From Escherichia coli (GTDB taxonomy: Bacteria > Pseudomonadota > Gammaproteobacteria > Enterobacterales > Enterobacteriaceae), in NCBI RefSeq assembly GCF_041248615.1, contig NZ_CP158426.1: a stretch of DNA of 64,000 nt; one strand, 5' to 3'. Each line of letters begins with the position of its first letter. Position 1 is the first letter of the stretch. Of the stretch, positions 63,401 through 64,000 are shown piece after piece. A program made the position numbers.

Positions 63401-64000
63401 GCATGTTGAGGTGATTGCGATAGAAGGGATAACGCTGATTATCCGTGCGGTCATCGCCTGATGCGACGCTGATGCGTCTTTTCATGCCTACAAAATATGC
63501 CCGAATTGTAGGCCGGATAAGGCGTTTTGAACTGCACCCCAAATGTTGGACATAATCTGACATCTGAAGGTGCAGTTTATGAAACATTCATTTGAAGTAA
63601 AACTTGCCGCTGTAAATCATTACCTGGCTGGTCATGCAGGCATCATTTCTACGGCAAAACTCTTTCAACTTTCTCACACCAGCCTCTCACACTGGATTAA
63701 TCTTTTTCTTCTTCACGGTCCTCGGGCACTGGATTGCAGACACAAGCGTAGCTATTCTCCTGAAGATAAACTTTGCGTGGTTCTTTATGCTCTCGGGCAT
63801 TCTGAGTCTCTACCCCGGGTAGCTGCCCGGTTTAACATTCCCAGCCACAACACGGTTAAAAACTGGATAAAAGGCTACCGCAAATCTGGTAATGAGGCCT
63901 TTATCAGGCGCAGGAAGGAGAAAAGCATGACCCGTTCTGATGATACCCATGAAAACGAGGCAAACATGACGCCGGAAGAGATGAAGAATGAGCTGCGTTA

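Follow-up and report, generated by a model that had tools for sequence, protein, structure and literature searches.

An apparently intact IS1397 copy in the loop of a REP unit downstream of ybbJ in Escherichia coli

The DNA analyzed here, referred to as the window, is a 64,000-nucleotide stretch of an Escherichia coli genome (NZ_CP158426.1) that ends inside an insertion sequence (IS). Around the point of insertion, the window holds ybbJ, parts of a BIME, and the left end of the IS, which are listed below; positions labeled L001 refer to the corresponding locus of a second genome, NZ_LT599825.1, that is described further on.

63003-63461, plus strand: ybbJ, an open reading frame for an NfeD-family protein, annotated as ybbJ in NZ_LT599825.1; the gene upstream of the insertion.
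63456-63491, plus strand: first palindromic unit (PU, or REP) of the BIME downstream of ybbJ, recognized by inverted and direct repeats and by a PU-arm motif match at 63456.
63508-63523, plus strand: left arm of the second PU, the target REP that is split by the IS (GTAGGCCGGATAAGGC).
63524-63527, plus strand: target-site duplication GTTT, consisting of the stem-closing G of the REP and three loop bases.
63528-63552, plus strand: left terminal inverted repeat of IS1397 (TGAACTGCACCCCAAATGTTGGACA; 25 nt, 84% complementary to L001 5536-5560).
63579-64000, plus strand: first 140 of the 173 codons of IS1397 orfA, with its ATG at 63579 and still open at the window end.

The element begins at position 63528 (TGAACTGCACC...), such that 473 nt of it lie within the window, and the motif TGAACTGCACCCCAAATGTTGGAC, which starts at the same position, occurs once in the 64 kb against 0.04 occurrences expected by chance. 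The initial annotation had started the feature at 63485, a position that falls within the upstream PU rather than at the IS boundary. This upstream PU, which was detected both as an inverted repeat and as a direct repeat in the repeat search, belongs to the Z type, in slightly degenerate form (GCCTGATGCGACGC...GCGTCTTTTCATGCCTAC), and is not disrupted by the insertion. The same annotation had placed the IS terminus immediately after a REP half-site; a half-site does adjoin the element (GTAGGCCGGATAAGGCG at 63508 to 63524), but three bases (TTT, 63525 to 63527) intervene before the first base of the IS. The sequence strings that it quoted are present, and its description of the site as downstream of ybbJ agrees with both the ybbJ reading frame and the ybbJ annotation in the identical genome.

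When nucleotides 63400 to 64000 of the window were compared by megablast with complete E. coli genomes, a single record was 100% identical, namely, NZ_LT599825.1 (isolate NRZ14408). Positions 1 to 50000 and 59400 to 64000 of the window match this record base for base, which amounts to at least 54.6 kb compared. Since the window is identical to NZ_LT599825.1 over the stretches compared, we used this genome (locus L001) to read past position 64000. The whole element as read there occupies L001 4129 to 5560 and is 1,432 bp long, a length in line with the ~1.43 kb that we take IS1397 to have. The estimate that only the left ~470 bp lies in the window was correct, the exact figure being 473 nt. Its terminal inverted repeats are 25 bp long, match at 21 of 25 positions, and have TG...CA ends (TGAAC...GTTCA). 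A second copy of GTTT abuts the right end (L001 5561 to 5564) and is directly followed, outside the window, by the partner arm of the target REP (ACGCCGCATCCGGC, L001 5565 to 5578), which is complementary to GCCGGATAAGGCG. Extension of the sequence, which the initial annotation had proposed as a check, thus yielded the right inverted repeat, the duplicated GTTT, and the REP arm beyond it. In NZ_LT599825.1, the site is annotated by RefSeq/PGAP as an "IS3-like element IS1397 family transposase" with a programmed frameshift.

The reading frame that follows the terminus is of the OrfA type, as had been claimed: it starts with an ATG at 63579, remains open for 140 codons, and matches transposase-type helix-turn-helix families in Pfam (HTH_28, 4.5e-18; HTH_Tnp_1, 8.6e-8; also HTH_29 and HTH_23), although this fragment alone stays below the threshold of the IS3-family model (35 bits). 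In the full element, OrfA is a helix-turn-helix protein of 173 amino acids (IS nucleotides 52 to 573) with two HTH_28 stretches, and its product is predicted to be a DNA-binding protein that would form the N-terminal part of an OrfAB transposase. OrfB is encoded in the -1 phase by an open frame of 311 codons (IS nucleotides 465 to 1397), and a slip site, A AAA AAA G, is located at IS nucleotides 524 to 531. The conceptual OrfAB fusion is 449 amino acids long, as is the PGAP join, which bears no pseudogene flag; it scores 387.6 bits against NCBIfam NF033516 "IS3 family transposase" (cut-off, 160) and contains rve (3.8e-21), rve_2 (1.4e-20), and HTH_21 (2.1e-17) domains, with HTH_28 and rve_3 also present. 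In an alignment of IS1397, IS150, IS3, and IS2, residues D135, D195, E231, and K238 of OrfB are invariant and form a DD(35)E-K signature. Given its full-length OrfA and OrfB, its inverted repeats, and its DDE core, the IS1397 copy looks intact.

These features bear directly on the classification of the element. We took IS3-family members to be ~1.2 to 1.55 kb long, with imperfect TG...CA repeats, an A6-7G slippery site, an rve core, and, in most groups, a duplication of 3 to 4 bp; the 1,432-bp element has TG...CA inverted repeats, an orfB in the -1 frame with a slip site, a DDE core, and a short duplication. Together with the NF033516 score, this anatomy bears out the earlier assignment to the IS3 family. 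The absence of an OrfB, of a right inverted repeat, or of any IS3 similarity had been named in advance as reasons to abandon the reading, and the data contradict all three.

At the level of the group, OrfB shares 51% identity with IS150 InsK of K-12 over 277 amino acids (307 bits), compared with 32% for IS3 InsF (113 bits) and 22% for IS2 InsD (33.5 bits), both also of K-12. OrfA comprises 173 amino acids in IS1397 and IS150 versus 99 in IS3 and 121 in IS2, and the left inverted repeat TGAACTGCACCCCAAATGTTGGACA resembles that of IS150 (TGTACTGCACCCATTTTGTTGGAC), the two repeats reading TGAACTGCACCC..TGTTGGAC in IS1397 and TGTACTGCACCC..TGTTGGAC in IS150. Our treatment of a long OrfA and IS150-like inverted repeats as hallmarks of the IS150 group is our own reading rather than a quoted definition. 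The comparison covered prototypes of three of the five IS3-family groups (IS150, IS3, and IS2; the other two groups are IS51 and IS407), and, judged against these three prototypes only, it supports the IS150-group membership proposed at the outset.

To characterize the target, we reconstructed the empty site. Removal of the IS and one GTTT restores GTAGGCCGGATAAGGCGTTTACGCCGCATCCGGC, which is a canonical REP/PU hairpin whose loop is 4 nt long; the hairpin fold obtained for the reconstructed target GCCGGATAAGGCGTTTACGCCGCATCCGGC has a loop of this same size. When folded as DNA, the energy of the reconstructed REP hairpin was not exceptional relative to shuffled sequences (z = -1.26), and the REP assignment therefore rests on sequence identity to the REP family and not on folding. 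Among the matches listed, at least 20 genomes contain the empty site with a single GTTT at 100% identity over 464 nt; the annotation of these matches at this place reads "ybbJ | hypothetical protein," and 809 genomes have a place that covers at least 80% of the 464-nt query. The target BIME comprises several PUs and separates ybbJ from a convergent hypothetical gene, and the IS is inserted precisely into a PU loop within it, with a 4-bp target duplication.

Other copies of the element were found in the same kind of site. Seven copies elsewhere (L002 to L008), all 1,432 bp long, are flanked by PU arms and are located at aceA/aceK, malQ/gntT, bacA/cca, near flhA, lamB/malM, mtlA/mtlD, and ubiG/yfaL. 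Because the BLAST query behind this first sample of flanks contained the REP arm, the sample was biased to one orientation, and a second sample of ten loci was drawn via the exact OrfA protein. Since these ten loci were chosen by OrfA, the selection was not biased by their flanks; a PU arm was present at the left junction in 10 of 10, and a complementary arm was present in all 8 for which the right end was visible. The OrfA-drawn loci included insertions in either orientation and in units of the Y type (GCCGGATAAGGCG) as well as the Z type (GCCTGATGCGACGC), which argues that insertion has no orientation specificity. Overall, all 20 insertion sites examined (8 + 10 + 2) lie in REP loops, again in both orientations. 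Duplications of 3 to 4 bp were present at 16 of the 18 sites for which both flanks were seen, the exceptions being L004 (none) and L015 (AA only). At L004 (bacA/cca, strain Z1323HEC0475), the bases flanking the IS are GCCA on the left and GCTT on the right, with no duplication match, and the left PU arm has diverged; recombination between two IS copies or later mutation is a possible explanation.

The PU downstream of ybbJ is occupied in other genomes as well, with a complete IS1397 copy in the same unit in EcPF15 and AR_0077. The AR_0077 copy (L026 1631 to 3062) is flanked by the duplication TTGC and lies in a PU allele that differs from window positions 63508 to 63527; because both the allele and the duplication differ, it represents an independent insertion in this PU. 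The PU downstream of ybbJ, struck at least twice independently, may thus be a preferred target. The REP-targeted insertion that the initial annotation ascribed to IS1397-like elements is upheld by the other REP arm past the right end, by the empty site that is 100% identical in many genomes, and by the REP-loop location of all 20 sites. It also agrees with the literature, in which IS1397 inserts specifically in REP/PU sequences of E. coli (PMC1525189, including its Additional file 13; PMC3184786).

The 473-nt left end is widespread, occurring in 1,719 of 5,426 complete E. coli genomes (~1/3), in which the median copy number is 2 and the highest is 40 or more. Almost all of its 5,460 places are chromosomal (5,456, with 4 on plasmids), and this nearly exclusive chromosomal spread fits a target that is itself essentially chromosomal.

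The name IS1397 is based on the RefSeq annotation and on matching properties, which serve here as a proxy for alignment with the type sequence from E. coli EPEC 25; ISfinder convention sets ~95% DNA identity as the limit below which an element receives its own name. It is conceivable that a distinct, unnamed IS150-group element merely resembles IS1397, since the PGAP label "IS1397 family" tolerates some divergence. Nevertheless, an E. coli host, a PU-loop target, and IS3-family membership are the properties reported for IS1397 (PMC1525189), and 1,671 of 1,723 records share at least 99% identity with the 473 nt in the window, forming one tight cluster that RefSeq labels IS1397. We therefore consider a separate element very unlikely, and the IS1397-like identity suggested by the initial annotation is matched by the RefSeq/PGAP name, IS1397 family transposase.

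Because the window contains only 473 nt, the sequence could also represent a truncated, inactive remnant consisting of nothing but a left end and orfA, and altered IS1397 copies do occur elsewhere: one is 1,791 bp long with an internal duplication (L009), and two are interrupted by an IS110-family element (L010 and L011). However, in NZ_LT599825.1, which matches the window completely wherever the two were compared, the sequence runs on through the full 1,432 bp, with an intact OrfAB and no pseudogene flag, and two other genomes have a complete copy in the same PU. On the strength of the full element in NZ_LT599825.1, we rejected the solo-end remnant as extremely unlikely. That the element is instead one of the other mobile elements linked with E. 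coli REP sequences (PMC1525189, PMC3333891), namely, IS621 of the IS110 family or a RAYT/REPtron Y1 transposase, has a negligible probability and was rejected on domain content, since its protein has a helix-turn-helix and rve/DDE core that passes the IS3 model and no DEDD (IS110) or Y1/HUH domain, the element has 25-bp inverted repeats and a 4-bp duplication, and IS621 inserts beside the REP palindrome rather than in its loop (PMC3184786).

Window positions 63528 to 64000 are thus almost certainly the left 473 nt of a complete and, as judged from its sequence, apparently functional IS1397 that resides in a REP loop between ybbJ and a convergent gene and is flanked by duplicated GTTT. This IS1397 copy is an ordinary, textbook insertion of a kind that is already known, and it has little importance beyond correct annotation. 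Since the window ends inside the mobile element, whatever lies downstream, first the remainder of IS1397 and then a small strain-specific island that precedes cueR, should not be taken for the native context of ybbJ. The site is nonetheless a clean case of structure-specific targeting, in which an IS3-family transposase acts on REP hairpin loops, and the copy number and positions of IS1397 are useful markers for strain typing.

By analogy with its family, the transposition of this copy can be outlined. In IS3-family elements, a -1 programmed ribosomal frameshift reportedly produces the OrfAB transposase, transposition is said to follow a copy-out/paste-in route via a circular intermediate, and the helix-turn-helix domains of OrfA-type proteins reportedly bind the inverted repeats. 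IS1397 would accordingly make its OrfAB transposase by -1 frameshifting at A AAA AAA G and would presumably transpose by copy-out/paste-in through a circle, and the PU is presumably recognized by the IS1397 transposase itself. The specificity of IS1397 is likewise ascribed to its transposase in the literature (PMC1525189, PMC3184786), with experimental support cited in PMC1525189; the primary studies cited in that paper are those of Bachellier et al. (1997), Clement et al. (1999), and Wilde et al. (2001, 2003). Since the insertion lies between convergent genes, its effect on the host is probably neutral. Beyond the IS, between IS1397 and cueR (L001 5683 to 8104), is a small island consisting of a hypothetical gene, a YadA-family autotransporter adhesin, and two further hypothetical genes; the target BIME lies at the ybbJ-proximal edge of this ybbJ-cueR island, which is presumably absent from K-12.

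The leader of orfA contains two further features, the second of which is a weak sequence match:

63528-63579, plus strand: leader hairpin of 52 nt, predicted by RNA folding.
63527-63556, plus strand: weak sigma-70-like promoter match (TTGAAC, 18-nt spacer, CATAAT; 9 of 12 consensus matches).

One arm of the predicted hairpin consists of the first 11 nucleotides of the IS; its partner, GGUGCAGUUUA, spans the Shine-Dalgarno sequence (GAAGGUG, 63566 to 63572) as well as the A of the start codon AUG. The folding energy is -23.9 kcal/mol (z = -5.17), and none of 200 shuffled sequences was as stable. Covariation in the hairpin is uninformative because IS1397 copies are all ~99% identical. The promoter scan of the leader returned 1 site versus 0.6 expected, i.e., a chance-level result. 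A transcript from the putative promoter at 63527 to 63556 would begin within the hairpin, so that the ribosome-binding site would stay accessible. The hairpin itself would form only on transcripts begun outside the IS and would stop orfA translation on read-through from ybbJ. Blocking translation on read-through transcripts is a strategy of other ISs. It is therefore possible, at somewhat less than even confidence, that the leader hairpin acts as a built-in translational insulator that silences transposase synthesis on read-through transcripts. Such an insulator, if real, would be most relevant to an element whose insertions always fall in transcribed REP/BIME sequences at the 3' ends of operons. 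When the IS150 leader was folded, the same hairpin was not found (z = -0.17), and the comparison thus lends it no support; since it is absent from IS150, the hairpin could be an adaptation to REP targeting.

Several other elements were observed in the window and in related genomes. A second IS3-family element, which is IS2-like, lies at 9652 to 10880 on the minus strand; its OrfB and OrfA are 96% and 99% identical, respectively, to those of K-12 IS2, and it adjoins an ISAs1-family transposase as well as a cluster of Rhs-repeat and PAAR genes and fragments (neighbors at 1 to 9100 and 11385 to 12521). The carbamate kinase gene ybcF (33202 to 34108, minus strand) is frameshifted, i.e., a pseudogene, according to the identical RefSeq record, and a BIME with three PU arms is located just upstream of it at 33111 to 33180. 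Among the altered IS1397 copies, the two in GCA_900149875.1 (L010 3061/4436 and L011 2955) are interrupted by an element with an IS110-family (DEDD) transposase, at IS nucleotides 1115/1116 in L010 and after nucleotide 1006 in L011, in opposite orientations, and represent nested mobile elements. The rearranged 1,791-bp copy (L009 1950 to 3740, GCA_000692635.1), in which nucleotides 1 to 305 are repeated after nucleotide 699 and nucleotides 700 to 765 are missing, lies in the loop of a Z-type PU with the duplication TTGA.

The element agrees with published IS1397 in host species, IS3-family anatomy, PU-loop insertion in BIMEs, 3- to 4-bp duplication, and RefSeq name, and no difference was found by these properties. 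IS150 of E. coli K-12 (insJ/insK), the IS150-group prototype within the IS3 family, resembles IS1397 in length (1,443 versus 1,432 bp), in its inverted repeats (TG(A/T)ACTGCACCC...TGTTGGAC), and in its frameshift site (A AAA AAG, nucleotide 530 versus 524 to 531), although the OrfA proteins are only 27% identical. To our knowledge, IS150 has not been described as specific for REP loops; Tobes and Pareja found one of two IS150 copies in CFT073 to be REP associated (PMC1525189). IS621, an E. coli element of the unrelated IS110 family, also has REP as its target, yet it encodes a DEDD transposase and lacks terminal inverted repeats, and its insertions lie outside the palindrome, at the 3' side of the REP (PMC3184786). 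ISKpn1, an IS3-family element of Klebsiella pneumoniae, likewise targets REP/PU loops with a specificity ascribed to its transposase (PMC1525189); it differs in its host and, according to a title cited in that paper, in its preferred PU type, and is likened to IS1397 here by description rather than by sequence.
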